Assembly: GCA_964556125.1 (NCBI GenBank)
Contig: CAZKUW010000002.1
Coordinates: 37,380-101,379, forward strand
Reading direction: 5' to 3'
Origin: an uncultured Candidatus Saccharibacteria bacterium
GTDB taxonomy: Bacteria > Patescibacteriota > Saccharimonadia > Saccharimonadales > Saccharimonadaceae
DNA length: 64,000 nt
Part shown: piece by piece, positions 1,456 through 50,938 of the stretch
Position numbering within the stretch: the first letter of the stretch is position 1
How the letters are laid out: every line of letters begins with the position of its first letter
Translations under genes and position numbers: made by a program
Notes under the pieces: model-generated
The model's input: the letters and a program-made list of their open reading frames with translations, nothing else
Told to the model about the DNA's origin: nothing
Databases searched by the model: none

Positions 1456-1560
1456 AGTGTTTATTATGCACCTACATTCTCATAGGCCAAAACTCGCTTT
1501 TTTATTGCTTTTCACTGAGGAAAAGCTTATGGTAAAAGAAGTAAATGAGGGATTGTTAAC

Positions 1561-3345: not shown

Positions 3346-3609
3346 TTACCGAAAGAGATGAGGCTTTGTCAAGAAATAGACAGCTTTGACAAGCCGATCT
3401 GGTGCTTGAGAGAAGGCGACTTCCGGACTCATACCGCCTAGATAATCGTTATTTGCGGCCCACCAGTTATTTGTCTTCTGAGTATCATGTCCGAAGTGGT
3501 CGAACACCATTGCTCGCAAGCCTGCGATAGCTTCATTGATTTCACCAAGATCACTAAAGGTAGGAAGACGTTCGATAGGGTGTCTGTTTGTCTCTAGCTC
3601 TGAATACAT
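3346..3609 (-). CDS. small protein with a DUF2384-like motif (second copy)
   Basis: 87 aa. NNWWAANNDYLGGMSPEVAFSQAPDRLVKAV shows the same W...LGG.sP pattern as 1120..1455. Confidence 0.5.
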   Translation of the reverse strand: MYSELETNRHPIERLPTFSDLGEINEAIAGLRAMVFDHFGHDTQKTNNWWAANNDYLGGMSPEVAFSQAPDRLVKAVYFLTKPHLFR

Positions 3610-3638
3610 TCACCCTATAGTAGCACCGGGTTCAAGAC

Positions 3639-3667
3639 TTGGCTAGCATAAGCTTTTGTGCTATAAT
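3639..3667 (+). promoter_or_regulatory. sigma70-like promoter for rplA (TTGGCT-17 bp-TGcTATAAT)
   Basis: -35 TTGGCT at 3639-3644, a 17-nt spacer, and an extended -10 TGcTATAAT ending at 3667, about 68 nt upstream of the rplA ATG. Confidence 0.55.
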
Positions 3668-3734
3668 AAATGTATAACAATCAATGTTGGGAGGCCTAGA
3701 CAGCCGTTTGCACCACAGAAAGGGTTTATACCTT

Positions 3735-4736
3735 ATGGCAAAGAAAGCCGACCTGCTCGCGCAGGCTAAAGACCTTGGTCTTGAAGTATCAGAAAAGAGT
3801 ACTATCGCTGAAATCGAAGCAGCGATTGCTGGTGCATCAGAAACACCTGCAGCACCTGCAGACGTCACAAGTGACGTTGTTCCTGAAGAAACCGTTGCAA
3901 AAGCTGGCAAGCGAAGTGCGAAAGCTATCGCAGAAGCTGAAGCTAAGTTAGAAAAAGAAGCACGTAAAGAAGCAGGCGACACGACCCCAACTGATGGTGA
4001 AGAGTCAACTGTGAAACGTGGTCCACGTCCTGTGACTCGTCCTTTGATTGAGCGACGCGGAAAGAACTACCGTAAAGTTGCTGAACAAGTTGAAGCAAAC
4101 ACTCTTTACTCTCTTGCAGATGCAATGGAATTGGCCGTTAAGACTAACCCTGCTAAATTTGATGCTAGTGTTGAACTTCACATTCGTCTAAACGTTGACC
4201 CACGCCAAGCAGACCAAAACATCCGTGCAACCGTCTCACTTCCAAACGGTACCGGTAAAACCATTAAGGTTGCCGTTTTTGCTCCGGAAGCTGACCACAA
4301 AGCAGCCAGCGCTGCAGGTGCTGATATCGTTGGTGATGAAACCTTCCTCGCTCAACTTGATAAAGAAGTTATCGACTTCGACATCTTGATTGCAACACCA
4401 CAATTCATGCCTCGTCTTGGTAAATACGCACGTCTCCTCGGTCCACGCGGCCTCATGCCTAACCCTAAGAGCGGTTCTGTTGCAACTGATGTTGCAAAAG
4501 CCGTCACTGAAGCAAAGGCTGGTAAAGTTGAATACCGCGTCGACAAGCAAGCGATTGTTCACCTCAGCATCGGTAAAGTAAGCTTCGGTGCAACTAAGCT
4601 AAACGAGAACGCTAAAAGCTTCTTCGACAGCCTTACAAGCCAAAAGCCAACCACTATTAAGGGAAGCTTCGTTAAATCTATTAACGTCAGCACTTCAATG
4701 GGTCCTGGTATTAAAGTCGAAAACTTTATTGCCTAA
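3735..4736 (+). CDS. rplA: 50S ribosomal protein L1 with an N-terminal extension of about 115 aa
   Basis: The canonical L1 core starts near GKNYRKVAEQVE...FDASVELHIRLNVDPRQADQNIRATVSLPNGTGK. The start is placed at the internal ATG 3735 (MAKKADLL...); the track ORF starts at 3684. Confidence 0.9.
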   Translation: MAKKADLLAQAKDLGLEVSEKSTIAEIEAAIAGASETPAAPADVTSDVVPEETVAKAGKRSAKAIAEAEAKLEKEARKEAGDTTPTDGEESTVKRGPRPVTRPLIERRGKNYRKVAEQVEANTLYSLADAMELAVKTNPAKFDASVELHIRLNVDPRQADQNIRATVSLPNGTGKTIKVAVFAPEADHKAASAAGADIVGDETFLAQLDKEVIDFDILIATPQFMPRLGKYARLLGPRGLMPNPKSGSVATDVAKAVTEAKAGKVEYRVDKQAIVHLSIGKVSFGATKLNENAKSFFDSLTSQKPTTIKGSFVKSINVSTSMGPGIKVENFIA

Positions 4737-4750
4737 GCTACCTGTTCATA

Positions 4751-4780
4751 AAAAAGATCTCCGTGACGGGGATCTTTTTT
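4751..4780. terminator. bidirectional intrinsic terminator between rplA and the convergent ORF
   Basis: AAAAA-GATCTCCG-tga-CGGGGATC-TTTTTT: an 8-bp stem (one G.U pair) flanked by an A-run and a T-run. Confidence 0.75.
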
Positions 4781-5543
4781 ATTGCTGGGCGTTTTCATTG
4801 GGTTCTTCAATAATGGTTGGTTGCGTCGATATCTCGGGGCGCCGACCAAACATCGATTCCATAATCGTTCTAAACAATGAACCCGTCGATTCATTAGCCT
4901 GAGCGGCTTCTACTTGTTCGACTTCGGCAGCAGTTGCAATACCCGCCGTCACATCAAATGCAGCTAATTTTAGTGCTGAGGGGTGACGAGCAATATACAG
5001 ATCTCTCAGATCACGCAATACCTTTAAGTGAGCATTTCGCTGTTCGATCTGTTTTGCATCGGTATCTCTTTGTAATGCACTTATTTCTGCCTGGAGTCTT
5101 TCGATCGTTTTCAAACTTTCTGCGTACAGTTCGGTTGGATCTTCTGAATTAACAATGGCAATAGATTGCTCAAGGGTCGACGTGACGAACTGATCGACTA
5201 AATGCGGAAGTGGACCGCCCTGGCTCCCTCTGGTGAGGTTAATCGTCCCTTCATTTGCCGCCGCTAGGACATCTGCTGCAAACCGTCGACGTTCGGATTC
5301 GTAGTGTACGACATTATGCACAGCAGCCGTTGCAACATCGAGAGCACGAATCTCAAGTAGTGGACGGGAATAGTCAGATGCCTCTTGAGGACCAATAGGG
5401 AATTCGTGAATAAAATCTGTGAAGTGTCGCGGGCCGATAGGCTCATCATAGAGAAGAACAGGTCGATCATCTGCCTTTGGAGTAGGGATATCATCTATCG
5501 GCAACCGTTCAGTGCTGGGGATAGACGTTTCTGTGTAAGTCAT
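4779..5543 (-). CDS. hypothetical protein (254 aa)
   Basis: Long ORF convergent with rplA, with a coiled-coil-like central part. No family recognised. Confidence 0.55.
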   Translation of the reverse strand: MTYTETSIPSTERLPIDDIPTPKADDRPVLLYDEPIGPRHFTDFIHEFPIGPQEASDYSRPLLEIRALDVATAAVHNVVHYESERRRFAADVLAAANEGTINLTRGSQGGPLPHLVDQFVTSTLEQSIAIVNSEDPTELYAESLKTIERLQAEISALQRDTDAKQIEQRNAHLKVLRDLRDLYIARHPSALKLAAFDVTAGIATAAEVEQVEAAQANESTGSLFRTIMESMFGRRPEISTQPTIIEEPNENAQQ

Positions 5544-5740
5544 ACAGACTACTCCTTGAACTTTGTTTGCTGATACTGCGTTTTTGTTTGGTGTTTAACG
5601 TCGCTACGACAAATTATACCATGAACGATATGCTTGTTGTGAAAAAAATCCCGATTTGACAGATGGTAGCGCCATTTCAGTGATTGTCATACCGCATATG
5701 GTGTGCCATCATTGAATTAACACAGTTCTTAGGGGAAAAC

Positions 5741-6670
5741 ATGAAACAATATTTAGATTTGCTACAAGATATTAAAGATAATGGAACCATAAAAAAAGAT
5801 CGTACTGGCGTTGGCACGAAGAGCGTCTTCGGACGTCAAATGCGATTCGATCTGACAAAAGGTTTTCCAGCAGTCACGACAAAAAAGCTCTATATGAAGG
5901 CAGTTGTTCATGAATTACTGTGGATGCTTCAAGGCACCACGAACATACAGTATCTTGTAAAGAACGATGTAAAAATCTGGAACGAATGGGCCTATCAAAC
6001 CTATCTTGAAAAAACGGGTCTTGATAAAAAACTCGAACGCTATTCTGATGAATGGAGCGAGGAATTAAAAAATTTCGTAAAGAACCTTAAAGAAGATGAT
6101 GAGTTCGCAAAAAAATGGGGTGAGTTAGGGCCAGTCTATGGCAAACAATGGCGTCGATGGACAGGTGAAGATGGAAAAGATATTGATCAGATTGCAAATA
6201 TCATAGACCTGATTAATAATGACCCGACTTCGCGACGAATTATTGTCTCAGGTTGGAATGTCGGCGAAATCCAAGAACTGATCCGAAGTCATGACCATAC
6301 ACCCCCTCCATGTCACAGTCTTTTTCAGTTCATGGTTATTGACGGAAAACTATCATGTCAGCTCTATCAAAGAAGTGGTGATGTTTTCTTAGGCATTCCA
6401 TTCAACATTGCATCCTACGCACTTTTGACACATATGATCGCACAAGTAACTGGCCTTGAGGTAGGTGATTTTATTCACACACTTGGCGATGCTCACATTT
6501 ATCTCAATCACTTCGATCAAGTCGATGAGCAGCTCTCACGCACACCACTTGCGCTGCCGAAGATCAAATTGAATCCAGCTATCAAGAGTATCGATGATTT
6601 CACCTACGATGATATCGAACTCGTCGACTACGAATCATACCCAGCTATCAAAGCACCTATCGCCGTTTAG
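5741..6670 (+). CDS. thyA: thymidylate synthase (ThyA, long form)
   Basis: [32 protein letters not shown] and [22 protein letters not shown] are ThyA signatures. AGGGGAAAAC lies before ATG 5741; track ORF 5684 is over-extended. Confidence 0.93.
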
Positions 6671-7149
6671 CGGCGAGTATAGCGAACAAAGTCGAACGCA
6701 TATTTATTGCGTTCGTCTTTTTCGTGAGACTCACGAGAGACTTCTCGCCATATCGTCAGATCAATAGGTGGGAAGAAGACTGTCGCCTTGTCGAAAGTTT
6801 CCTGTACTTCTGTGGCTTCAATCACGTCAGCGTTTTTTACTGTTTCAGCATAAATTTGAGCGCCACCAATGATAAATATCTCGTCAGTAGCAAGATCATA
6901 GGCCTCATCCAGAGTACGAGCGACCTCAACTCCTTCTGTATCTTGCATCGAACGACTGACAACTATATTTTGACGATTCGGAAGTGCGCGTCCAATTGAA
7001 GTAAACGTATTACGACCCATGATGACGGTGTGACCGGTTGTGAGATCCTTAAAGTGTTTGAGGTCAGCCGGTAGATCACGGAGCCACAATAAATCATTAT
7101 TTGCGCCAATGCCGTAATTTTTATCAAAAGCAACAACAATTGTTTTCAT
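6667..7149 (-). CDS. folA: dihydrofolate reductase
   Basis: 160 aa. [51 protein letters not shown] and [10 protein letters not shown] are DHFR motifs. Confidence 0.9.
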
Positions 7150-7197
7150 GACCTTATCTTAGCATGCTACAATCAAAGAAAGTGAAGGGGAGAACAG

Positions 7198-7872
7198 ATG
7201 AGTGTCTATAGCAATATAGAAATTGAAGAAGCGATTAAAGATGGTCACATTATTTTCCATCCATACCGTCCAGAACATATTAATGGAAGTAGTGTTGACG
7301 TCACACTAGGTGAATGGTTTTACCGTACCGACCGAAAAAGTCCGGAGAGCGTCTACAACCCGTTCGACAAGATCGAGGTTGATCGTTATTACGGAGAACC
7401 ACAAAAAGCTATCACTCATGCCGAATGGTGCAAGCAAACTGGCAACAAACCCCTTGTTAACATTCCTGCCGACCATCCTGTTATCGTACTCGAACCGGGT
7501 GAACGCATCTTGGCTCATACCAACGAGTTTATTGGTATCCTCCCTCCGGGTACCACGAGTATGCAGTCACGTAGTACTTGGGGACGTAATGGCGTCGCAG
7601 TATGTTTTGACGCTGGTTGGGGAGACCCTGGCTACGTCAACCGCTGGACACTCGAGGTATACAACCTTAATCAACGTCACAGTATTGTACTTCCTGTCGG
7701 TGAGCGTATTGCTCAGATTGTCTTCTTCCACACTGGAGAAGTCCGAGGCACTTACGCGAGCTTGAGTGGAAAGTATACTCTCGGGACAGATCTCGATGAA
7801 CTCATCAAGGGCTGGGAACCACAACAAATGCTCCCACGCGCTTACAAAGATAAGCGACAAGGAATCTCATAA
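7198..7872 (+). CDS. dcd: dCTP deaminase family protein
   Basis: INGSSVDVTLG..., a Ser/Arg-rich QSRSTWGRNG block and GWGDPGY..RWTLEVYN resemble the dCTP deaminase/dUTPase fold. Confidence 0.75.
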   Translation: MSVYSNIEIEEAIKDGHIIFHPYRPEHINGSSVDVTLGEWFYRTDRKSPESVYNPFDKIEVDRYYGEPQKAITHAEWCKQTGNKPLVNIPADHPVIVLEPGERILAHTNEFIGILPPGTTSMQSRSTWGRNGVAVCFDAGWGDPGYVNRWTLEVYNLNQRHSIVLPVGERIAQIVFFHTGEVRGTYASLSGKYTLGTDLDELIKGWEPQQMLPRAYKDKRQGIS

Positions 7873-8550
7873 GTGGGTATTTTCATTGCTATCGAAGGTG
7901 GTGACGGCTCCGGGAAAGCAACCCAGACGAAAATCTTGGCTGAGTACGCTGAAAAAGAACTCAAGAAAAATGTCTTCACTATCGCATTCCCACAACACGG
8001 CGAGTTCTCATCCTATTACGCTGATCAGTACCTAAATGGTGCCTATGGCGGCGTCAATGACGTCCATGCTGATCTTGCCAGCCTGCCCTATGCGATTGAC
8101 CGTTTTGCTGCGAGTCCGAAAATTCGGGAGGTGCTTGATGATCCCAATGGTCTCGTGATCGCTGATCGTTACGTGGCCTCAAACCTTGCACACCAAGGCT
8201 CTAAACTGAGTGACCGGAAAGAGCGTCATGAATACTACGACCGGATGATGCAAACAGAGTTTGAAGTCCTCGGTATTCCTAAACCTGACGTGAATATTAT
8301 TTTATTAGTGCCTTCTGCAATTTCTCAGGAAAATATTGATAAAAAAGAAGCCCGTGGCTATACGGACATGAAGAGAGACATCCACGAACAAGACGCAAAC
8401 CACCTTGATCGTACAAAAGCTAACTACGAAGAACTGACGGAAATATATCCGGACTGGTTCCGCGCCATTGATTGCATGAATGACCAGGGCACTATGCGTT
8501 CCATCGAAGCTATACAAGACGACATTCGACGACTCCTTAAGGCCGTTTAA
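7873..8550 (+). CDS. tmk: thymidylate kinase
   Basis: GTG start. P-loop IAIEGGDGSGKATQ and DRYVASNLAHQG are typical of Tmk. Confidence 0.9.
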   Translation: MGIFIAIEGGDGSGKATQTKILAEYAEKELKKNVFTIAFPQHGEFSSYYADQYLNGAYGGVNDVHADLASLPYAIDRFAASPKIREVLDDPNGLVIADRYVASNLAHQGSKLSDRKERHEYYDRMMQTEFEVLGIPKPDVNIILLVPSAISQENIDKKEARGYTDMKRDIHEQDANHLDRTKANYEELTEIYPDWFRAIDCMNDQGTMRSIEAIQDDIRRLLKAV

Positions 8551-9736
8551 TAATTCGGCTCATCAAGCGGCGGAGCGGAGACTCTTTTGGTTTACCAACA
8601 TTCAGATTATCGAAAAATGCTTGAACCTCAGGTGATGGATAAATCTTTGTATTGTTTCGGACTGCTGCAATTTCACTCGAGAGTGTCACGTTATTGAGTC
8701 GTTCTTGAATATGCTTAGAACTATCTGGATCTTCGTCGGAGAAGTAATATTGTCGAGGAAGATGCTCCCTTTCGATACCTTGCTCCTCTAACATTTCTTG
8801 CTGCTTCGCTACTTCTCGAGCCGTAGTAGGGTTGTAGGCATAGATAGTTGAAGACATAGAGATAGCATTCTTTTTCTTTTTTGAAGTAGAAAGTTCTTCA
8901 ATAAACTCTTTGTAAGGTTCGAGGAGTTTTTCTTGAACAAGTCCTTCTTCCATTTGAATCATCCTCATCATTGCGACACCTTCCTCACCAAATTCTTTAT
9001 AGAACCGACTGTCCTTATCAGTCCGAAGAACGAAGGATGAACGCTCACGTACAATTGTTCCATCAGGTAGGGTCGCAAGTGTCTTTTTTCGAGTCATCAG
9101 TAAGCCTGCTGGAATACTCAGATCTCCTTCTTCAAGAGCTAGACCTTCATCACTCACTGCTTCCTTTACCCTAAAACGAGGCTCCGACGAATCGTCAAGC
9201 TTCCCGCCCAACAGATCAACAGCATACGAAACAGCTTTATGCATAGCAGCGAGCGATTCTTCATGTTCTCCGTATGGATGTGTAAGGCAGGCGAGTTCGA
9301 TACTTCGAATCCCAAGTAGATCCCGAACCAATAGCAATTCAGCAGGTGATGCCGCTCCTAGTCTTGCTCTTTCAACAATTGCGCTGAGTCGTAAGTCCAA
9401 TACTGGTAAAGCGTCGTAGCGAAGTGCTGTCATAAAATTTTCATCATTAGCTTTGGCGCGATTGCTAAATCGGATATCAAACGTATCCCGAATATAGCTA
9501 GCAATGCTCAGTGGAGTTCCATCTGGAATCGATAGCAATAATTTATGAAGCTCGAGACGAATTCTTTTTTGTGACCCCATCGTCAAAGGGCGATCAAGTG
9601 GCGTTGCGCCAAATGTAAGGTCTTCACCTTTTGGAGCTATCTCAGATAATACTAATAGGTCACTATCGAGTGAGTAAAAAGGGCCGGTATTAAAAGAGAA
9701 CTCGCCTGTAGCCTCGTTATTTGCTTGACCTACCAT
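8537..9736 (-). CDS. hypothetical protein (399 aa)
   Basis: Long ORF convergent with tmk, overlapping its 3' end by 14 nt. No family recognised. Confidence 0.6.
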   Translation of the reverse strand: MVGQANNEATGEFSFNTGPFYSLDSDLLVLSEIAPKGEDLTFGATPLDRPLTMGSQKRIRLELHKLLLSIPDGTPLSIASYIRDTFDIRFSNRAKANDENFMTALRYDALPVLDLRLSAIVERARLGAASPAELLLVRDLLGIRSIELACLTHPYGEHEESLAAMHKAVSYAVDLLGGKLDDSSEPRFRVKEAVSDEGLALEEGDLSIPAGLLMTRKKTLATLPDGTIVRERSSFVLRTDKDSRFYKEFGEEGVAMMRMIQMEEGLVQEKLLEPYKEFIEELSTSKKKKNAISMSSTIYAYNPTTAREVAKQQEMLEEQGIEREHLPRQYYFSDEDPDSSKHIQERLNNVTLSSEIAAVRNNTKIYPSPEVQAFFDNLNVGKPKESPLRRLMSRIIKRP

Positions 9737-10317: not shown

Positions 10318-10346
10318 TTGACATATTTACTATAGTTTTATATACT
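10318..10346 (+). promoter_or_regulatory. rplJ-rplL promoter (TTGACA-17 bp-TATACT)
   Basis: Consensus -35 TTGACA at 10318-10323, a 17-nt spacer, and TATACT at 10341-10346. This gives a leader of about 180 nt. Confidence 0.65.
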
Positions 10347-10359
10347 CCCTAGTAGACAT

Positions 10360-10464
10360 CCCAAAGACAGTAGCTGTGGCAACACTTAATTCGCTACCGA
10401 GGTAAATGTAAAACATACATTTTTTCAGTCTTTGGCAGTGCGAGAACCAAAGACTTTTTGTTTT
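10360..10464 (+). promoter_or_regulatory. rplJ leader with terminator/antiterminator alternative pairing (L10-leader-like attenuator)
   Basis: AGTCTTTGG (10427-35) pairs with CCAAAGACT (10447-55), followed by TTTTGTTTT. An upstream CCAAAGAC (10361-68) can pair with the same 5' arm. Confidence 0.55.
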
Positions 10465-10535
10465 CTCTGGGAAAAGCTGCCTGTCTAGCATGACTTAACA
10501 ATTTGGCCGAATGAATAATAACCAAGGAGATTTTT

Positions 10536-11060
10536 ATGGCAATTACCCGCGATAAAAAGAACGAATTGGTTGCTGAAATGGGCGAACTGTTCACAAGTGC
10601 AAAAGCAACTGCTTTCGCACACTACGACGGTTTAAGTGTCGCTGACCTTCAAAAGTTACGTGCACAAGCCCGCGAAGCTGGCGTGGTTATCCGAGTGGTT
10701 AAAAACCGCTTGGTCCGCGTTGCTCTCGGTGAAGTCGAGGCATATAAAAACACTGATGTCTCAGGCCTTACTGGACAACTCCTTTACGCTATTAGCGCTG
10801 AGGATGAAGTTGCTCCCGCAAAGACCTTGAGTACATTTGCAAAAACCAATGACGCGCTTGTCATCGCTGGTGGATTTTCTAACGAAGGAGCTCTTTTGAG
10901 CGCCGCGGAAGTTACCTCACTTGCGAGCCTGCCAAGCAAGAACCAACTTATTGGCGAAGTCATTGCACAACTGCTTTCACCAGTTCACGATATCACCAAC
11001 GCACTTCAGGGCAACCTGCACGCGCTTTTGGATGGTATTGAAGCTAAAGCAACCAGTTAA
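10536..11060 (+). CDS. rplJ: 50S ribosomal protein L10
   Basis: 174 aa. AAGGAG RBS. KKNELVAEMGELF...ADLQKLRAQAREAGVVIRVVKNRL is typical of L10. Confidence 0.93.
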   Translation: MAITRDKKNELVAEMGELFTSAKATAFAHYDGLSVADLQKLRAQAREAGVVIRVVKNRLVRVALGEVEAYKNTDVSGLTGQLLYAISAEDEVAPAKTLSTFAKTNDALVIAGGFSNEGALLSAAEVTSLASLPSKNQLIGEVIAQLLSPVHDITNALQGNLHALLDGIEAKATS

Positions 11061-40668: not shown

Positions 40669-41391
40669 TTAAACGTGATTAAACAATTCTACCCACTGAT
40701 GGAGTCTCATTTCTGACGGCTTGATACCTTCAGGGAGCCCCACCGCTTCTCGTGGCGCTTTCGCAAATAGCTTTGGGTCAGAGAAACAGCCTTCAATGAA
40801 TTTCCGATATTCAGGCATTTTCTCTAGTGGAATAAATGGCTCATCACGCTTTTTTATCTCGATAAGTGCAGTGTCGACATTCGGATGAGGGAAATAGTCA
40901 GTCCGTTTGAGTGGACGACGAATCCTCACTCCAAAAGTGGGGCCGATCATCATACCAAGCTGCCCAGTGAAGCGATCAGAGTTTGGTAGCAATTTATTGG
41001 CAAATTGTTTTTGAACAATGAGATACGCCGCAGTAGGGGGGTGGGGATCCTCAGTGATTTTACGGACGATTGGTGAGCTAAGGTGAAAGGGAATATTGGC
41101 AAATATCTTATACGGCTTGCTCGGGAGTTTTAAATCAAGAAAGTCTGTCTCGGTGACAAACACGTTCGGATACCGTTCCATGTTCTCACGAAGTTTTCCT
41201 GCCATGCGTGGTTCAAACTCGATCGCCTCGACGCGCTTTACTTTCCCGGCAAGGACCGCCGATATTGCACCACTTCCTGCACCGATGTCATAAACAACGT
41301 CGTTTGACTTTATATTGGTATGTCCGATGAGTTCTTTAATAAAGTCCGGACTGCGGAGGAAGTATTGAGAATAGTGCGCAAGGCGTTTCAT
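40669..41391 (-). CDS. erm: Erm-like 23S rRNA (adenine-N6)-methyltransferase
   Basis: By-eye alignment to ErmC: YSQYFLRSPDFIKELI vs HSQNFITSKHNIDKIM; YDIGAGSGA vs FEIGSGKGH; YKIFANIPFHLSSPIVRKI vs YKIFGNIPYNISTDIIRKI; AYLIVQKQFANKLL vs IYLIVEYGFAKRLL. The 240-aa length fits Erm better than KsgA. Confidence 0.7.
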   Translation of the reverse strand: MKRLAHYSQYFLRSPDFIKELIGHTNIKSNDVVYDIGAGSGAISAVLAGKVKRVEAIEFEPRMAGKLRENMERYPNVFVTETDFLDLKLPSKPYKIFANIPFHLSSPIVRKITEDPHPPTAAYLIVQKQFANKLLPNSDRFTGQLGMMIGPTFGVRIRRPLKRTDYFPHPNVDTALIEIKKRDEPFIPLEKMPEYRKFIEGCFSDPKLFAKAPREAVGLPEGIKPSEMRLHQWVELFNHV

Positions 41392-41410
41392 ACTTAAGTG
41401 ATTATACCTT

Positions 41411-41454
41411 AAAAATGAAGCGCCGGCCTCCCTCGAACATAAGGGGGGCCGGCG
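41411..41454 (-). terminator. intrinsic terminator of islet F
   Basis: Read on the minus strand: CGCCGGCC(CCCC..GGGA)GGCCGGCG followed by CTTCATTTTT. Confidence 0.7.
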
Positions 41455-41469
41455 ACTTCGGACATGAGC

Positions 41470-41943
41470 CTAGCGGCTCACGAGTCCCTCGAGGGTCTTG
41501 ACGAAGCCCTCGGGGCCGGAGAACAACGCGTCCTGGTCATCCTGCTCGTAGCCGTTGTCGGGCAGGATCAGGGTGGCGAAGCGGATCGACCGCATCATCA
41601 CACAGACCGGGCCGGTCTTCTTCGGGTCGATGTAGCGCAGGTTGTAGAACCCGAACGCGACCTCGTGACTCGTCGAGAGGCGGTAGAGGATCAGGTCGGC
41701 CGGACCGATCGCCTCCGTGTCGAGCTCCTCCTGGAAGATGAGGAACTCGAACTGCGCGGCGGGGTGCGGCTTGATCTGGAAGTCCTCGGGGTGAGGGAAG
41801 ATCGTTGCCATTCCCTCGACGGCGCCGACGAGTCCGTGCTCCTTGATCAGGGGCAGGACGGCGTCGAGCGAGTCGATCAGAGCCTGCTTGCGCGCGTTGA
41901 AGACGCGCACGCGGGGGTCGGTGAACAACATCGTGTCAGTCAT
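41470..41943 (-). CDS. GC-rich islet F: hypothetical protein (157 aa)
   Basis: GC3-rich frame. MTDTMLFTDPRVRVFNARKQALIDSLD.... No family recognised. Confidence 0.6.
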   Translation of the reverse strand: MTDTMLFTDPRVRVFNARKQALIDSLDAVLPLIKEHGLVGAVEGMATIFPHPEDFQIKPHPAAQFEFLIFQEELDTEAIGPADLILYRLSTSHEVAFGFYNLRYIDPKKTGPVCVMMRSIRFATLILPDNGYEQDDQDALFSGPEGFVKTLEGLVSR

Positions 41944-42023
41944 GCGTTATCTCTTCTCAGTAATGTCCAAAGTCCTTGCGGAGCTTGGACTATCGGGTAG
42001 TGCCTAAGCTCTCGCTTAATATT

Positions 42024-42052
42024 ATTATAGCACTTTCAATCAATAAAGTCAA
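42024..42052 (-). promoter_or_regulatory. consensus promoter of islet F (TTGACT-17 bp-TGcTATAAT)
   Basis: Read on the minus strand: TTGACT, a 17-nt spacer ending in TGC, then TATAAT. Confidence 0.65.
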
Positions 42053-42079
42053 TCTGACGTTTTATCATATGTCCATAAC

Positions 42080-42117
42080 GAAGTGGAGCCCGCGCCCGAA
42101 GGAGCGGACTCCACTTC
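42080..42117 (-). terminator. GC-rich hairpin terminating islet G
   Basis: GAAGTGGAG(C)CCGC...GCGG(A)CTCCACTTC, a stem of about 14 bp lying 14 nt after the stop codon. Confidence 0.6.
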
Positions 42118-42130
42118 GGACACGGGCGTG

Positions 42131-42760
42131 TCAGATGAACGAACGAGGGTAGGTCGTGTCAGAGACCACCTCGTACGTGGCGTAGGTCTCTTCCGAGTCA
42201 TCCTGTTCATGAACGGTGATGCGCAGCACACGTACGCGCTGGAGGAAGGCCGCTCCGGGGTAGTCGGTCGCTTCGAAAACGAGCGACTTTTCTTCTCCAT
42301 CCCGAGAACCATGGATCACCTTGATGTGATACAGGTTGAGGTCCTCAGTGATCGCCTGCAGGTGGACGAAGAAGTTGTGCTCGGCGATCCCCGACATGTT
42401 CGAGCTGATCGGCGCATGTGATCGAACGAACGAACCACCTGCGAGCGACAGCGTCGCGACCTGAACTCTGAGTGGCTCTCCCAGCGTTGACCCGCCGTGA
42501 TGCGGGCCAGCGTGGTTGAGGTCAGAGAGTCGGAACAGCTCGAACTTGTCAGGAACGTCCCAGACCAGATCGAAGCCGTGAAGGGCACTAGCGACGATCT
42601 CGTCGTCAGGCGGATAGCCCGCATCGATCCAGTCTGCGAGCTGCTCCTCGGTCGGTACGTGGATGCGACGCATCCACGAGGGGACCGGTGCGGTTCCAGG
42701 CTGCACCTTCCGAGGGTGCCGGCGGACAGGCGTTTTCTTTTTTTCGTTTCCCTGATTCAT
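42131..42760 (-). CDS. GC-rich islet G: hypothetical protein (209 aa, basic N-terminus)
   Basis: ATG 42760 is preceded by GAAAGAGAG. MNQGNEKKKTPVRRHPRKV.... GC3-rich. The track ORF is extended to a GTG at 42814. Confidence 0.6.
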   Translation of the reverse strand: MNQGNEKKKTPVRRHPRKVQPGTAPVPSWMRRIHVPTEEQLADWIDAGYPPDDEIVASALHGFDLVWDVPDKFELFRLSDLNHAGPHHGGSTLGEPLRVQVATLSLAGGSFVRSHAPISSNMSGIAEHNFFVHLQAITEDLNLYHIKVIHGSRDGEEKSLVFEATDYPGAAFLQRVRVLRITVHEQDDSEETYATYEVVSDTTYPRSFI

Positions 42761-42840
42761 CTGCTCTCTTTCTAGGTGGGTGGATGTGCTGCCATGATCG
42801 AATCTTGGAAGCACGACACCAGCCCAGAAAGAGTACTATA

Positions 42841-43500: not shown

Positions 43501-44214
43501 CTAAACTCCTGAGACACCGAAAAAACTACCAATACCATAGGTGATTATCATTGCGACAGCACCTCCAGAGACAACACGAAGAATAGACGTTACTTTACTT
43601 GTCCCGCCCAGCTTCGCGCTCAAAAAGCCCGTAATAATAAGTGCCGCGATGACCGAGGCAAAGGTTACAGGAACCGTTAAGCTTCCTATAGGTAACATGA
43701 CCGCAGCGAGCGGGATAGCAGAGCCGATCAAAAAGGCGACAGCCGATGCGAATGCAGCCCGCCAAGCGCTGGTCAGGTTATTCGGATCGATAGAGAGTTC
43801 AGCATCGACATGTGCAGCGAACGCATCCTTTTTTGTCAGCTCGGTCGCTACAAGACGAGCTGTACTTGGCTTGAGGCCTTTGTACTCATAGATAGATGCG
43901 AGTTCATCGAGTTCTGACTCGGGTTTCGTCTTAAGTTCTTCTCGTTCCTTTTTAAGGAGTGTTTTTTCGATATCGCGTTGTGTACTAACCGATACATATT
44001 CACCGGCCGCCATAGATAAAGCGCCCGCCACAATTCCAGCGACACCAGCGGTCAAAATAATCAGTTTAGAATCTGTTGCTCCGGCGACACCCACTACCAA
44101 TCCTGCAATCGAGACGATACCGTCGTTTGAGCCAAGGACTGCGGCGCGTAGCCAGTTTGAGCGTGCACTCAATTGCTTCGCATGATGGGGAGTATAAAGT
44201 GTTTGTTTAGTCAT
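43501..44214 (-). CDS. VIT1/CCC1-family iron/manganese transporter
   Basis: SNWLRAAVLGSNDGIVSIAGLVVGVAGA and AGALSMAAGEYVSVSTQRD. Confidence 0.8.
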   Translation of the reverse strand: MTKQTLYTPHHAKQLSARSNWLRAAVLGSNDGIVSIAGLVVGVAGATDSKLIILTAGVAGIVAGALSMAAGEYVSVSTQRDIEKTLLKKEREELKTKPESELDELASIYEYKGLKPSTARLVATELTKKDAFAAHVDAELSIDPNNLTSAWRAAFASAVAFLIGSAIPLAAVMLPIGSLTVPVTFASVIAALIITGFLSAKLGGTSKVTSILRVVSGGAVAMIITYGIGSFFGVSGV

Positions 44215-46118: not shown

Positions 46119-46589
46119 ATGAATAATAGTGAACATATTCCACCAAAAGCTGTCGAAGATATAGATAAAGCAAGAGCCATGGCTCAAGCAGAAGATGCGG
46201 GCAGATCTAGCGCTGCAATTGATAAAGCTGCGATAGAGATCGTAGAAGAATCTTGGCAGAACGACAAACATGTCCAGTTTATAGATGCAGCAGCGAGTGC
46301 AGCTGAAGCTCTCAGTCGAGATCAAGGCTATCCACGAAAATGGCAAGAAGAGCGACACCTCCAAGGGACCCGAAGAGCTGCCAATGCGTGGGAGACAGGT
46401 CTCGAACGTAATGCAACTGTACTGGAATCCAAACACGCTGTTGAGTTTGTTACCGACAGTGCACTTTCTGAGTTAGAGCGCTCAGCGAAACGACATGCTC
46501 GACAGGCCGATAAAGCAGGTAGGTTAGCGGCCCGAGCTTACGACAAAGACCAGAAACGTCAATCTAATGAGAGCGATATAGCTGCTTAA
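46119..46589 (+). CDS. hypothetical protein (156 aa, charged, Ala-rich)
   Basis: ORF only. No family recognised. Confidence 0.45.
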   Translation: MNNSEHIPPKAVEDIDKARAMAQAEDAGRSSAAIDKAAIEIVEESWQNDKHVQFIDAAASAAEALSRDQGYPRKWQEERHLQGTRRAANAWETGLERNATVLESKHAVEFVTDSALSELERSAKRHARQADKAGRLAARAYDKDQKRQSNESDIAA

Positions 46590-46623
46590 GTGCCCCGAAC
46601 GAGCTACCAAAAGTAACTGACAT

Positions 46624-46656
46624 AAAAATAGATCGCATAGTATGTGATCTATTTTT
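46624..46656. terminator. bidirectional terminator at the distal end of the tRNA-Gln islet
   Basis: AAAAATAGATC-gcatagtatgt-GATCTATTTTT. Confidence 0.75.
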
Positions 46657-46669
46657 ATATATGAATTCT

Positions 46670-46685
46670 TGGCTGGGGATATGGG
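46670..46685. repeat. direct repeat of the tRNA-Gln 3' end (att-like, distal copy)
   Basis: TGGCTGGGGATaTGGG here against TGGCTGGGGATgAGGG at 49176-49191: the first 11 nt are identical and 14 of 16 match overall. Confidence 0.6.
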
Positions 46686-46723
46686 TCTAGTACCTAAAAT
46701 GAGACGAATGAGATACGGTAGGG

Positions 46724-47395
46724 CTACTCCCATCCCCATTTTTTCGGCAGTGTAGGGTCGACATCACTTTCAAGCAGCACGGTAACTCGTGCAAGCCCTT
46801 CCGGACTTAATGGATATTCGTAAGGCATAGGATCAACTGTGACTCCGTAAAGGCCGTGGGCCACTGCGACCAAATCGTGAACCTTGATAAGTGCACGCCT
46901 GATCGCAACCAGTACATCTTCACTAATACTAATTTCTTTGATCCAATACTTTCGCCACACCCCATACTGCTCGTCGAGAGCGGAGTGACCCGGATCAAGG
47001 AATATGCGACCGGCTTTACTCTTTGTCCAACGTTCAAGTATCTCCACGCTATGAAGATCTCCGCGAACCTCATGACTAAAAGCCAGCTTTAGACGACGTC
47101 CACGGTAAAGCCCTACATCGATCTTACTTCCATCGAAGATAGCTTTTTGATGGAGCGTTACATTACGAGCACCCTTTACAGCACCGAGCCACGGATCATC
47201 TTTAAATGGTTCACGAGCCTGGTTCCACTTAACCACATCTCCTTTTTTCTCGATCTCTTTTTGTAGAAACGTTTCTACTGAGTTAACGGAGGTAAGTAAT
47301 GCATTTAGGTTATACCTGAAAGCGCGCGGATCATGGTATTCGCGTTCTAGACGTTCGGCATTATGAAAACACTCCATGAGCCGATCCTCGCTCAT
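46724..47395 (-). CDS. hypothetical protein (223 aa), third gene of the islet operon
   Basis: ORF co-oriented with the Shedu-like gene. No family recognised. Confidence 0.55.
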   Translation of the reverse strand: MSEDRLMECFHNAERLEREYHDPRAFRYNLNALLTSVNSVETFLQKEIEKKGDVVKWNQAREPFKDDPWLGAVKGARNVTLHQKAIFDGSKIDVGLYRGRRLKLAFSHEVRGDLHSVEILERWTKSKAGRIFLDPGHSALDEQYGVWRKYWIKEISISEDVLVAIRRALIKVHDLVAVAHGLYGVTVDPMPYEYPLSPEGLARVTVLLESDVDPTLPKKWGWE

Positions 47396-47443
47396 TGGTA
47401 TAGGACAGGAGACTTCATCTTCACATAGTTGGCAAGAAGTAAT

Positions 47444-47788
47444 TTAGAAACCTCCTGTTAGCTGATCGCTCGGCTTAACACACTTTTCGTGAACATCCAG
47501 GACTGGATATCGCTTTTTTGTCCAAGCAACATACAGTGGATGAACTTCGTAATCTATTTTGTCCTCAAGTGCCCATGAGCCTTCGCCCTGATGAATTAAT
47601 TCACCGCATTTTGCACAAACTCGATGATTATGAAACCAATGAAAGTGCATGCCTTCACGTTCTGCTTCCTTTTTTAAATTTGGAGCTTTTTCAAAGAAAT
47701 CAGGATCGTTCAATCGAACCCTGATAACTATATCTTTGTCACAATATTCGCAACGTTTAACTACCTGATAAACAGTCCTCAAAAACAT
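47444..47788 (-). CDS. small zinc-ribbon protein (114 aa; CxxC...CxxC, His-rich)
   Basis: The start is placed at ATG 47788, 1 nt after the upstream stop. CEYCDK...HFHWFHNHRVCAKCGELIH. The HNH-like resemblance is weak. Confidence 0.5.
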   Translation of the reverse strand: MFLRTVYQVVKRCEYCDKDIVIRVRLNDPDFFEKAPNLKKEAEREGMHFHWFHNHRVCAKCGELIHQGEGSWALEDKIDYEVHPLYVAWTKKRYPVLDVHEKCVKPSDQLTGGF

Positions 47789-47789
47789 T

Positions 47790-49118
47790 TCATTCCTGGC
47801 CGATACCCAAAGACACTTCAAGGTAACTAACGTAATTCTCTAAATTCTTGATTAACTCATCAAAAAGAACGATATCTATGTTGCTATAAGTTGTCTTGAG
47901 CTTCTTAATCTCTTTTTCAAGCCGCGCGGTTAATTCATCGTCAGCAGCGTCTGAAGTAATATGGTCTCTTGAGGAGATGATTAATATGCCTCTAGGTCGA
48001 TAGATCTTATCATTTTCAATAAGCGATTTCGTATAATCGTCCTTAATCTTGGATGTATCAATATTTTCCATGCGCATATCCATATACTTATTGAGCTGGA
48101 AAATAGATTTGTTTAATTCACTGGACGGATAGTAGGAGTCACGTCCAGTTTCTTTTCGGAATAGAATTGCTCGATGTGTCTTTATTTCAATGATATCCAC
48201 ATTGTTATAAATATCCACTGCCAAGAAGTCTGGTCGGGTTTCCTTGTCGTAGCCTTTCATAGGCTTGAATACAGTTTGTGGGTAAAACTCTTTATAACTC
48301 ATTAACAAAACTCGGAGGTATTTCTCAAAATACAATTGCCAGCATGACTCAAGAGTCTTACGCTCCTCGCCAAGAACTTTTTTGGAGATGGATTTTATTT
48401 TTGTTTTATTACCAGTCAACTCAAGGAGTTCTCTGCCAATCTTAATGATTTCTCGAATACTTTCTTTATACAGAGGGAGTGTTTCACTCAGAGTAAGCTT
48501 ATATGCGCCCTCTTTGATCTGGTCATCCATAAAATTCTTAATGAATGTTCTGTCACCTTTACTTAGGGTAAGATACTTACCCTCAAACCCCTTAACAACG
48601 TAGCCAACATTGGCGAAAATGGCGGATGTATCGATGTCGGAACTATCGGTAGCATTAAATTTGTCGCGAACTATCTTCGAAGTTTTTGTCCGAATTTTTT
48701 TTACTTTATTTAAGTGATCGAGATAATTGTCGTATTTGGCCATATCAATCACCGTTACATCAGCAACTTCATATCCGGCTGGGATACTGGTAATAAAGCT
48801 CAGATAAGGATTCTGAATTGCTTGCAGCTCAGAAAATTCTTTTAGCTCCTTCTTTAGGGTAAAGTTTTCGAAAGATATGTATTTTTCATACTCGGATAAG
48901 TTACGCTTATCAAGAAAAGCGTGTGTGAAATATTCTGTCCTTTGAGCAATTTGGTCTCGAGTATTGCGTTGGCCGTTCTGATATACACTGTCCAGTCTAC
49001 GAACATTGTAGAGTTTCGCAACAACAGTATTTCCTTGATCGCTAAGTAGAGGAGACTCACCCCAGTTATTCTCAAAAGCTTCTGATTTTTCATGTAATTG
49101 CTCTTCGTTCATATTCAC
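47790..49118 (-). CDS. sduA: Shedu-like defence nuclease (DUF4263 / PD-(D/E)xK C-terminal domain)
   Basis: RPDFLAVDIYNNVDIIEIK (D...ExK), SIFQLNKY, RPRGILIISSRD and IDIVLFDELI match the DUF4263 pattern. The N-terminal half (about 270 aa) is unassigned. Confidence 0.7.
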   Translation of the reverse strand: MNMNEEQLHEKSEAFENNWGESPLLSDQGNTVVAKLYNVRRLDSVYQNGQRNTRDQIAQRTEYFTHAFLDKRNLSEYEKYISFENFTLKKELKEFSELQAIQNPYLSFITSIPAGYEVADVTVIDMAKYDNYLDHLNKVKKIRTKTSKIVRDKFNATDSSDIDTSAIFANVGYVVKGFEGKYLTLSKGDRTFIKNFMDDQIKEGAYKLTLSETLPLYKESIREIIKIGRELLELTGNKTKIKSISKKVLGEERKTLESCWQLYFEKYLRVLLMSYKEFYPQTVFKPMKGYDKETRPDFLAVDIYNNVDIIEIKTHRAILFRKETGRDSYYPSSELNKSIFQLNKYMDMRMENIDTSKIKDDYTKSLIENDKIYRPRGILIISSRDHITSDAADDELTARLEKEIKKLKTTYSNIDIVLFDELIKNLENYVSYLEVSLGIGQE

Positions 49119-49130
49119 ATTATACGACTA

Positions 49131-49157
49131 AAATCAAATGAGACCCCTATGGGTCTC
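49131..49157 (-). terminator. terminator downstream of tRNA-Gln
   Basis: Read on the minus strand: GAGACCC-atag-GGGTCTC followed by ATTTGATTT. Confidence 0.65.
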
Positions 49158-49175
49158 ATTTCTATGTGTCGCATC

Positions 49176-49191
49176 TGGCTGGGGATGAGGG
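49176..49191. repeat. att-like repeat, proximal copy (tRNA-Gln 3' end)
   Basis: TGGCTGGGGATGAGGG. See 46670-46685. Confidence 0.6.
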
Positions 49192-49249
49192 ATTCGAACC
49201 CCCGATATCGGGACCAGAACCCGGTGCCTTACCACTTGGCCAATCCCCA
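49176..49249 (-). tRNA. tRNA-Gln (anticodon CUG), CCA encoded
   Basis: TGGGGATTGGCCAAGTGGTAAGGCACCGGGTTCTGGTCCCGATATCGGGGGTTCGAATCCCTCATCCCCAGCCA. The 7-bp acceptor stem, the GGTTCGAATCC T-arm and the anticodon loop TTCTGGT fold by hand, and the sequence is close to E. coli tRNA-Gln. Confidence 0.9.
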
Positions 49250-49354
49250 GTATAGCGTCTTGCGACAGAGGTCATTATACCACGAAGGCTACAGAGAGGT
49301 GAACCATAAAAAAAGCAACTTGCGGTTATGGTTATATTTCGATAAACTTTAAGT

Positions 49355-50938
49355 ATGAATAGGCTGAGGCGGGGCTTTACATTAATAGAACTTATCGTAG
49401 TGATTGCCGTCATCGGCATCCTTGCGACTATTACTGTTGTCGGACTCTCTCGTTACCAAGCAGACACTCGTGATGCGCGAAGGACTTCGAGCGTCAGCGT
49501 TATCTCAGAAGCTCTCGAAAAATATTATGATCTGAATGGTGAATACCCGGGCTGTAATGCGTTGCAACAAAGCGGGGCAATTGTCGCTACAGACACGCTC
49601 AAAGGCATTAGTTCATCAACACTGGTCACTCCTCAAGCAGACAACAGTACTACGAACTCAATCAGCTGTACAACCGTCACGACAAACGGCACCGATATCA
49701 TCGAATATCAAGGTGATGGTAGTAGTACCTGTAGTTCAGGGACGTCATGTCTGTCTTATACACTGCGCTACAAAGAAGAGGGAACAGGCACAATTAAAGA
49801 GGTTAAGAGTCGACGAACAACAGACATTGCGACTTCTGGTGATTCGACAATCAGCCTGGGTAACGTCAGCTTTACTCGTATCGTCGTCCTATGGACTCCC
49901 GTTGCCAACGCTGCGTCATATGATCTCGAAACAAACGGTGTCATCTCTTCAGTAACGGGTGTATCCACTATCTTGACTGGTCTCCCGATGAATACTGGCT
50001 ACACTTTCAAAATTCGTCCAGTCGGATCTGGTGGAGCTGGTGCGTGGTCAAACGTCGTTAGCACAACGACTCTTAACCTTGCAGCCCCAGTAGTAACCGC
50101 TACGGGCAATACCGCAACGAATTACACCGCAGCATGGAGTCCTATCACAAATGCAACTGCATATAATGTCCAATGTTCGACCGACAACGTCACTTGGGGA
50201 ACTGGGTGTCAGCAAACAACCTCAAGTACCAGTTACACATTTACTAACGGTTCAATGGCGACTCGATACTATGTCCGTGCTCAGGCAATCAACACTACTG
50301 CTGCGGATGCTCCTCAGGCCGGAAACTGGTCGGCCTCAGCAAACACCTATACGACCGTGACCGCACCGGCAACTTACACCATATCTTCAAGCACCCCAGC
50401 ATGGAACACACTTCAGGCAACCAGTAATGCGGTCTGTACTGGAAGTTCTGTTCCACAATATGTATGGTACGCCAATGGATCGGTATGGGCCGGAGCGACA
50501 ACTCAAACCGTTACCTATACCCTGAGTTGGAACCAGAGCGTCACTTTGTCAGTCAACACTCGTTGTACTTTGAACGGTCAAAATAGTACCTACACCACCT
50601 CAACCAACACAGCTAGTCGATCACTCCCTGGTCCGACAGCATGGGCAGGAAACTGTGCTAGCCGTACCGCTTGTTGGGATGGAAGCTGTCCTGCAGGAAC
50701 AACCAGTGGCTACATTAACTGGCGGGTTAACTCGGCTGTACAAGGAAACCCGTGGGTCTCAAGTAACGCCGGAGTAGGGTATGGAACATGGGCTGCAACT
50801 GGTTCCACATGGGGAGATGGTGACGTACGGTCAACAACCTATTGTTCAGGTCCTTGGGGAACAGTCACTGCGAGCGGATGGGGTCCATTCGGCTCAGGGT
50901 GTGTCCCAACAATCGTATCGGGATGGTGTACTGTCTAA
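49355..50938 (+). CDS. giant type IV pilin-like protein with FN3-like repeat(s) and a Cys-rich C-terminal domain
   Basis: Prepilin signal MNRLRRG/FTLIELIVVIAVIGILA (Gly-1, Phe+1, Glu+5). FN3-like block SFTRIVVLWTPVANAASYDL...GYTFKIRPV. 527 aa. Confidence 0.85.
   Translation: MNRLRRGFTLIELIVVIAVIGILATITVVGLSRYQADTRDARRTSSVSVISEALEKYYDLNGEYPGCNALQQSGAIVATDTLKGISSSTLVTPQADNSTTNSISCTTVTTNGTDIIEYQGDGSSTCSSGTSCLSYTLRYKEEGTGTIKEVKSRRTTDIATSGDSTISLGNVSFTRIVVLWTPVANAASYDLETNGVISSVTGVSTILTGLPMNTGYTFKIRPVGSGGAGAWSNVVSTTTLNLAAPVVTATGNTATNYTAAWSPITNATAYNVQCSTDNVTWGTGCQQTTSSTSYTFTNGSMATRYYVRAQAINTTAADAPQAGNWSASANTYTTVTAPATYTISSSTPAWNTLQATSNAVCTGSSVPQYVWYANGSVWAGATTQTVTYTLSWNQSVTLSVNTRCTLNGQNSTYTTSTNTASRSLPGPTAWAGNCASRTACWDGSCPAGTTSGYINWRVNSAVQGNPWVSSNAGVGYGTWAATGSTWGDGDVRSTTYCSGPWGTVTASGWGPFGSGCVPTIVSGWCTV

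Follow-up and report, generated by a model that had tools for sequence, protein, structure and literature searches.

We analysed a 64,000-nucleotide (nt) window of contig CAZKUW010000002.1 from an uncultured Candidatus Saccharibacteria bacterium (assembly GCA_964556125.1, positions 37,380 to 101,379), and within it a 2.5-kb segment that abuts the 3' end of a tRNA-Gln gene and carries three genes on the minus strand. The segment is probably a small, mosaic defence islet without an integrase, in which an autonomous Shedu nuclease gene (gene 1) has come to lie next to a facultative accessory gene (gene 2) and an unrelated cargo gene (gene 3), rather than one three-gene system. A sequence-only reading of the same DNA had proposed a conserved three-gene version of Shedu. 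We found the trio only in the window and in an identical contig (L001); the other contexts recovered by tblastn and profile hidden Markov model (HMM) searches separate the genes. The accompanying premise that a multi-gene Shedu would be a new architecture is outdated, the two-component KELShedu having been published (PMC12577705). The value of the present analysis is mainly corrective: what looked like a new multi-gene Shedu appears to be a set of three separately mobile modules, and it does not qualify as an addition to the known defence architectures.

Gene content of the islet

The tRNA gene, the two copies of its 3' end and the three genes between them are located as follows (window coordinates; aa, amino acids; ORF, open reading frame).

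49176..49249, minus strand: tRNA-Gln, anticodon CTG, CCA encoded, oriented with the 3' end towards the islet (ARAGORN; Rfam RF00005, 59.8 bits)
49176..49200, no strand assigned: proximal attachment-site (att)-like copy, running from CCA and the discriminator base through the 3' acceptor strand into the beginning of the T-arm (repeat search, local alignment)
47790..49118, minus strand: gene 1, predicted SduA nuclease, 442 aa if translated from GTG, 440 aa if from ATG (49112) (Pfam, PADLOC, PDB profile match)
47444..47788, minus strand: gene 2, putative two-zinc protein of 114 aa, with AGGA in the tail of gene 1 (ORF list, family alignment)
46724..47395, minus strand: gene 3, 223 aa, with an Ea47-like N-terminal helical domain (PF26900 family; homologue annotations, hhalign, hmmsearch)
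46670..46694, no strand assigned: distal att-like copy, a degenerate fragment of the tRNA-Gln 3' end (11 nt exact, 14/16, 19/25)

The tRNA-Gln(CTG) is the single tRNA of the window according to ARAGORN and Rfam. Exactly three minus-strand genes, encoding 442, 114 and 223 aa, are present between the repeats. The ATG of gene 2 (47788) follows the stop codon of gene 1 (47790–92) after 1 nt, as had been described, and the 114-aa product, which had been called a zinc-ribbon protein, has conserved Cys4 and His3Cys residues that are predicted to form zinc sites. Genes 2 and 3 are 48 nt apart, and the terminator scan predicted no terminator between the three genes.

This layout on one strand with gaps of 1 and 48 nt, together with the identical arrangement in contig L001, is what one conserved three-component Shedu would look like, with genes 2 and 3 as obligate sensor or regulator subunits. 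We consider this highly improbable. L001 represents the same organism at 100% identity, and the trio was combined at no other locus. Gene 1 homologues (44–82% identical) occur without both partners, the gene 2 homologues at loci L171, L172 and L175 are not accompanied by gene 3, and gene 3 homologues (50–78% identical) had neither gene 2 nor a gene 1-type or any other adjacent Shedu in all other contexts examined. The G+C content of gene 3 is also unlike that of genes 1 and 2. Co-occurrence of genes 2 and 3 with DUF4263 genes elsewhere holds in part: gene 2 repeatedly adjoins SduA but is absent from most Shedu loci, and gene 3 is found without an adjacent gene 1-type Shedu.

Gene 1 and its relatives

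Gene 1 appears, on sequence and profile evidence, to encode a true Shedu nuclease, which upholds the DUF4263/SduA signature recognised in the sequence-only reading. The quoted motifs are present, and residues 256–423 correspond to the DUF4263/SduA_C PD-(D/E)xK domain (PF14082, E = 1.3e-17, profile positions 3–159 of 159) with a score of 64.9 bits, against a curated cut-off of 27 bits. Nine PADLOC SduA models match gene 1 (best 1.2e-17), and a profile of the gene 1 family matches the solved Shedu effector (PDB 8ps4/8ps5; E = 5.2e-13 for 8ps4). The catalytic residues of gene 1 line up with the IDIALVD...LDIIEVKK segment of 8ps4, and P296, D297, D308, E311, K313, Q341 and K344 are invariant among 23 gene 1 homologues. 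We collected 71 homologues with 44–91% identity, nearly all of them full-length. The few with a named source are candidate-phyla bacteria, e.g., Gracilibacteria and Pacebacteria; relatives were absent from IMG/VR, and an exact look-up of the gene 1 protein returned no match. The N-terminal region of approximately 230 residues had no Pfam, PADLOC or PDB family match and is conserved across approximately 70 homologues as a family-specific region. By analogy with the solved SduA of Bacillus cereus, we infer that the gene 1 product would form a homo-oligomer, in which the family-specific N-terminal domain would restrain the C-terminal PD-(D/E)xK nuclease until invading DNA, e.g., free ends, is sensed and cut.

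A perfect TATAAT is located 6 nt upstream of the in-frame ATG of gene 1 (49112), right after the probable terminator hairpin of the tRNA (49112–49130, minus strand). It suggests a leaderless or near-leaderless transcript and the 440-aa form of gene 1 that is typical of the homologues.

Relatives of gene 1 are regularly found alone. Fourteen metagenome loci have full-length homologues with 44–80% identity, and tblastn detected no relative of gene 2 or gene 3 at any of them. The homologues at L178–L181, which are 82% identical to gene 1, are likewise without genes 2 and 3 by both tblastn and profile HMM, and a profile-HMM search of all fetched loci found no gene 2 or gene 3 relative at the loci with a full-length gene 1 homologue. 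The total number of loci with a full-length homologue (44–82% identical) and neither partner is approximately 20. Most gene 1 homologues are located in or beside restriction-modification operons: between hsdM and hsdS (L091, L092 and L094), after a type I restriction-modification system (hsdR; L180/L181), after an Eco57I/MmeI-type (type IIG) enzyme (L099), following a methyltransferase of 708 aa within an element that also encodes a serine recombinase (L178/L179), and beside a C5 methylase (L098). An association of Shedu with restriction-modification has already been reported (bioRxiv 10.1101/2023.08.10.552793), and the contexts of the gene 1 homologues agree with it. At every locus, the gene 1 homologue is AT-richer than its own flanks.

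Some of these loci also have a tRNA close by. At L098, a tRNA-Glu is located 110 nt upstream of the gene 1 homologue. At L099, the homologue adjoins a tRNA-Ser whose 3' end is duplicated exactly over 19 nt (9500–9518 and 9652–9670); the duplicate is present between the tRNA and the homologue, 152 nt from the tRNA. It may have been left by a previous integration at tRNA-Ser.

Taking together the approximately 20 partnerless loci, the AT-richness relative to the flanks, and the contexts adjacent to restriction-modification genes or tRNAs, gene 1 appears to be an autonomous and highly mobile single-gene module. Defence in Patescibacteria is poorly charted, and the gene 1 family represents a conserved Shedu subfamily with an unclassified N-terminal domain that usually resides in restriction-modification operons. 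The Shedu of the window is instead found in a tiny, tRNA-linked islet.

Gene 2 and its contexts

Gene 2 appears from its genomic contexts to be repeatedly and tightly linked to defence effectors, mostly Shedu, and at the same time to be dispensable for the gene 1 family, i.e., facultative. C13, C16, C58, C61, H50, H55 and H100 are invariant in the gene 2 family and C103 is nearly invariant; because of this conservation of Cys4 and His3Cys residues, the protein is predicted to hold two zinc sites (C13/C16/C58/C61 and H50/H55/H100/C103). Gene 2 had no Pfam match at E values up to 1, WYL included, and no significant NCBIfam, PHROGs or PADLOC match. A PDB sequence search was negative, and the AlphaFold2 model had no PDB match at E ≤0.001. 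The best AlphaFold2 model had a predicted local distance difference test score (pLDDT) of 86, and the other four models were poor. HWFHNH was considered as an HNH nuclease motif and rejected, as family members do not conserve H53 and N54 and Pfam gave no HNH match.

The family is rare. The first search found six homologues, and an exhaustive profile search found approximately 30 among 1.84 billion cluster representatives. Nearly all are stand-alone proteins of 100–120 aa, and the named sources are Patescibacteria and Levybacteria; relatives were absent from IMG/VR, the GenBank phage set and the plasmid set. Five distinct contexts were readable, namely the window, L182, L172–L174, L171 and L175. 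L182 has a gene 1 tail with 94% identity, followed after 1 nt by a gene 2 homologue with 76% identity. Between L182 and the window, synonymous sites are saturated, and the nonsynonymous divergence (dN) amounts to only 0.04 in gene 1 and 0.16 in gene 2. In L172–L174, a gene 2 homologue begins 4 nt behind a 417-aa SduA, and in L171 a 421-aa SduA related to that of L172–L174 is encoded divergently from a gene 2 homologue at a distance of 61 nt. The SduA proteins of L171–L174 are only approximately 24% identical to the C-terminal nuclease domain of gene 1 and belong to a different subfamily. In L175 (3453–5120), a gene 2 homologue is located 42 nt after a complete type VI retron (PADLOC; HTH_VI, 1.9e-21; RT_VI, 1.9e-58).

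The closest relatives of gene 1 lack gene 2, and therefore gene 2 would not be required for Shedu in general. The requirement could still be confined to the lineage of the window, where genes 1 and 2 would form an obligate two-component Shedu analogous to KELShedu, with the zinc protein as a required DNA-binding or activating subunit and gene 3 as a bystander. L182 is consistent with such a pair in that it keeps the 1-nt junction and the gene order despite saturated synonymous sites, with purifying selection on both genes. Gene 2 homologues also adjoin a second, unrelated Shedu subfamily in two arrangements, and there is a published example of a Shedu whose activity depends on a partner of approximately 110 aa (PMC12577705). 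However, gene 1 homologues as close as 82% are found in contexts without gene 2, no gene 2 family member was detected by profile HMM at any of 80 metagenome loci bearing SduA_C, and a gene 2 homologue follows a complete retron as well. Moreover, gene 2 is unrelated to KELA, a WYL-like SH3 barrel, and has no WYL match. We regard an obligate pair as unlikely.

A broader proposal is that the gene 2 family is a portable accessory subunit, so far found only in Patescibacteria, that serves two unrelated Shedu subfamilies and a type VI retron and that, together with gene 1, makes a new two-component Shedu variant with the small partner as sensor, inhibitor or regulator. We put this forward tentatively, as a possibility that falls short of our preferred reading of gene 2 as a facultative accessory. 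The protein most likely binds nucleic acid or the effector and would thereby modulate sensing or expression. This rare two-zinc protein, met repeatedly next to Shedu and a retron, offers a candidate shared accessory of defence that could be tested at little cost. Gene 1 is of an already known kind (Shedu), and any novelty would be limited to the gene 2 family as a portable Shedu/retron accessory in Patescibacteria, a prospect in which our confidence is low.

Gene 3 and its contexts

Gene 3, previously described as having no recognisable domain, proved to be homologous to lambda Ea47 over its N-terminal ~95 residues. Most of its 63 homologues carry a precomputed PF26900 (Phage_lambda_Ea47) annotation. 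The Pfam copy used here was without the PF26900 model, and the Ea47 homology was checked by direct comparison. With hhalign, residues 3–96 of gene 3 aligned with residues 7–102 (of 410) of lambda Ea47 at 98% probability (E = 1.2e-13, 30% identity), and hmmsearch with the gene 3-family HMM gave 5.5e-14 for lambda ea47. The C-terminal halves of the two proteins do not align, and the similarity does not extend over the full length. Besides a weak match to PHROG 19262, gene 3 had no significant Pfam, NCBIfam, PHROGs or PADLOC match. A PDB sequence search was negative, and the AlphaFold2 model (pLDDT 88.8) had no PDB or BFVD fold match at E ≤0.001, the best BFVD entry being an unnamed 166-aa viral protein (E = 9.5e-3). 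Relatives were absent from IMG/VR and the GenBank phage set, and the plasmid set yielded one Paenarthrobacter conjugative plasmid and one weak Pseudomonas match.

The contexts of gene 3 homologues are diverse. In L002, the homologue (77% identical) is part of a defence-like island with an SduA of its own, 3.4 kb off, that tblastn did not detect as gene 1-like. This region (704–8654) encodes a HEPN_Cthe2314 protein, a large serine recombinase and the different SduA (422 aa), with the gene 3 homologue 3.4 kb further. In L003–L006, the homologue belongs to a polysaccharide-synthesis locus with no defence genes, and in L176/L177 it is found among hypothetical genes. In L007–L010 (Microbacterium), it is located beside an ApeA-like gene, with Zeta-toxin, WYL and SLFN genes nearby, and one further homologue resides on the Paenarthrobacter conjugative plasmid. 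Gene 3 thus appears to be an independent cargo gene and not a Shedu partner, as judged from these neighbourhoods.

Gene 3 is not the only gene of the window with actinobacterial relatives. The gene 3 family is common to Micrococcales at 50–63% identity (Microbacterium, Gulosibacter, Arthrobacter and the Paenarthrobacter conjugative plasmid), and the VIT1-family gene at 43501–44214 has Actinomycetota matches of up to 62%, as close as its best matches in Patescibacteria/Saccharibacteria (61–62%). If the organism is a Saccharibacteria-type episymbiont, the sharing of gene 3 and VIT1 may reflect gene exchange between the episymbiont lineage and actinobacterial hosts.

The independence of gene 3 could be extended to gene 2, such that each is single-gene defence or toxin-like cargo of its own, or gene 2 a transcription regulator, and both are near Shedu only through the clustering of defence genes. 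The neighbours of gene 3 homologues in Microbacterium (ApeA, Zeta-toxin, WYL, SLFN) and in L002 (HEPN, serine recombinase, SduA) are consistent with this, as is the adjacency of gene 2 homologues to three different defence effectors; the divergent pair in L171 is typical of a regulator and its target. Nevertheless, neither gene 2 nor gene 3 matches a PADLOC model, gene 3 also occurs in the polysaccharide-synthesis locus without defence genes, and the coupling of gene 2 to SduA at 1–4 nt in three loci suggests more than loose clustering. We consider fully independent cargo rather unlikely, and retain gene 2 as a facultative accessory and gene 3 as unrelated cargo.

Probable insertion at tRNA-Gln

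The 3'-terminal 16 nt of the tRNA, TGGCTGGGGATGAGGG on the plus strand (49176–91), are matched by TGGCTGGGGATATGGG at 46670–85, with 11 nt exact and 14/16 identical. The coordinates and the match reported by the sequence-only reading were reproduced, and local alignment lengthens the repeat into the T-arm (19/25). The match begins precisely at the CCA end of the tRNA. Relative to the tRNA, the distal copy is a direct repeat on the 3' side and is placed intergenically, between the last gene of the islet and a terminator hairpin. A match by chance is unlikely: when the 10 kb downstream of the tRNA 3' end was shuffled 2000 times, only three shuffles gave a same-strand hit with at most two mismatches, and the expected number of hits with at most three mismatches is 0.18 for the whole window on both strands. 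The geometry is that expected of an element integrated at a tRNA 3' end. Family searches detected no recombinase domain in the three plausible coding ORFs of at least 50 aa between the repeats, so that the description of att-like repeats without an integrase also stands.

Other candidate copies were rejected. A third match to the 16-mer at 51535–50 was taken as chance (three mismatches, opposite strand, inside an ORF). With tandem integration in mind, a third att copy was sought by eye between genes 2 and 3, and the best match was 8/16 and not significant.

Three regulatory features accompany the repeats.

49274..49303, minus strand: promoter-like site upstream of the tRNA, TTCACC, 18-nt spacer, TG-TATAAT, 10/12 (consensus scan only; site count no higher than in shuffles)
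49136..49161, minus strand: strong hairpin with T-tract inside the islet, between the tRNA 3' end (15 nt away) and gene 1 (18 nt away) (-20.6 kcal/mol, z -5.3; terminator scan)
46620..46660, no strand assigned: bidirectional hairpin terminator just outside the distal repeat (minus strand, -21.5 kcal/mol, z -5.75; plus strand, -19.7 kcal/mol, z -3.8)

Both copies of the tRNA end have a strong hairpin with a U-tract within approximately 15 nt on the minus strand. The inner hairpin (49136–61) is the probable terminator of the tRNA. The outer hairpin (46620–60) is common to the islet operon and the convergent ORF 46119–46589; because it is located outside the repeats and also serves this ORF, it looks like the original terminator of the tRNA. 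Presumably, it once terminated both the tRNA and the convergent ORF and now also ends the islet operon. It had been claimed that the repeats bracket the operon together with its terminators. This is correct for the three minus-strand genes, but the hairpin that ends the operon lies outside the distal repeat, and the inner one lies upstream of gene 1. The candidate promoter upstream of the tRNA (49274–49303) could drive read-through into the islet.

The segment had also been called markedly AT-rich. This was borne out for gene 1 (G+C 0.375) and gene 2 (0.394), which are below all 56 other long ORFs of the window (minimum 0.41, mean 0.473), and for positions 48001–60 (18/60 G+C), but not for gene 3, whose G+C of 0.473 equals the background mean of the window ORFs and is host-like. 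The block is therefore compositionally mosaic.

Four observations point to an insertion, namely the repeat, the terminator arrangement found in duplicate, the composition of the first two genes, and what the gene 1 family does at other loci. We infer from them that site-specific recombination in the 11-bp core at the tRNA 3' end probably brought in the whole block or, at a minimum, genes 1 and 2. Such an insertion would leave a degenerate piece of the tRNA at the distal boundary, next to the original terminator, and the recombinase would have been either lost or acting in trans. Gene 2 would travel with defence effectors as a facultative, small two-zinc modulator, and gene 3 would move independently between plasmids, defence islands and variable regions.

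Several points weigh against this reconstruction. No integrase or recombinase is present between the repeats, and neither an empty site nor an excised form was seen, the sole contig with the same flanks (L001) being identical to the window. An exact-protein look-up of the adjacent 156-aa ORF returned this identical contig alone. A scan with the flanking VIT1 protein found no close relative in the GTDB genome set: the matches in the genome collection were mostly from Actinomycetota, with three Patescibacteria/Saccharibacteria contigs at 51–62% identity and no synteny, and the closest GTDB relatives of the flanking protein were 61–62% identical and non-syntenic. The insertion would depend on an 11-nt exact core plus degenerate flanks, and given the host-like composition of gene 3, the block may not have arrived as one unit. 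As for the role of gene 2, the protein has no fold or family match, with one of five AlphaFold2 models confident, and its adjacency to defence genes in only five contexts could be explained by shared residence in defence islands.

Some of these points would fit a history without insertion, in which the 16-mer match is fortuitous or a relic of a local duplication of the tRNA flank, and the genes simply occupy a variable intergenic hotspot by the tRNA. The short exact core of 11 nt, the missing integrase and empty site, and the host-like composition of gene 3 are all compatible with it, and the repeat was picked after being seen, so that the real search space is larger than that of the shuffle test. 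On the other hand, an equal match arose in only 3/2000 shuffles of the downstream 10 kb. A fortuitous match would also have to start at the CCA end, in direct orientation on the 3' side, extend to 19/25, and fall between the last islet gene and a terminator hairpin. In addition, genes 1 and 2 are lower in G+C than every other long ORF of the window. We judge the absence of any insertion to be improbable, and an islet inserted at tRNA-Gln remains our preferred reading.

Other features of the window

A G+C-rich patch (0.55–0.63, against a window mean of 0.465) is present at 41200–42800. It includes ORFs 41464–42000 (plus strand) and 42131–42814 (minus strand); for neither does the precomputed annotation of the identical contig L001 list a Pfam family. 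A ribosomal protein L10 leader (RF00557, 62 bits) is located at 10343–10469, upstream of an rplJ-like ORF (10536–11060). Immediately on the other side of the tRNA, 49355–50938 encodes a protein of 527 aa that combines fibronectin type III repeats with a type IV pilin methylation motif at the N terminus. Pairs of 156- and 207-aa ORFs at 38.8–40.0 kb and 45.3–46.6 kb suggested an inverted duplication, which was rejected because the pairs share no similarity.

Comparison with known systems

Gene 1 resembles the Shedu of Bacillus cereus (SduA, PDB 8ps4/8ps5) in its C-terminal PD-(D/E)xK domain with conserved catalytic residues, its similar size (~440 aa) with a variable N-terminal domain, and its behaviour as a single horizontally mobile gene, usually in restriction-modification or defence contexts. 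It differs in that no Pfam, PADLOC or PDB family matched its first ~230 residues and in that, in the window, it is trailed by a small zinc protein.

Compared with tRNA-integrated islands, the islet has a direct repeat of the tRNA 3' end bounding defence cargo, with genes 1 and 2 compositionally foreign, on the tRNA 3' side, and the tRNA is reconstituted. In contrast, it measures only 2.5 kb, has no integrase and an 11-nt exact core, one of its three genes is host-like in composition, and no empty site is documented.

Phage lambda does not require Ea47 (PF26900), a b-region protein without an assigned function. Gene 3 is homologous to it over an N-terminal helical domain of ~95 residues. Gene 3 is otherwise distinct, with 223 aa as against 410 aa, unalignable C-terminal halves, and no relatives in the phage collections searched.

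The published two-component KELShedu consists of KELA and KELB, with a ~110-aa partner that is needed for activity; KELA is encoded upstream, adopts a WYL-like SH3 barrel and binds double-stranded DNA (PMC12577705). Both KELShedu and the present pair have a DUF4263 nuclease in a bicistronic arrangement with a ~110-aa protein, 1–3 nt apart; in the gene 2 family, the partner is coupled to the DUF4263 gene at 1 nt in the window and L182 and at 4 nt in L172. Unlike KELA, from which it is set apart by description, gene 2 is located downstream and has two putative zinc sites and no WYL match. The type VI retron (HTH + RT) of L175 has no counterpart in the window and is of interest here only for showing another type of partner of the gene 2 family. 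The gene 2 homologue is located directly downstream of it, in the same position as after SduA.

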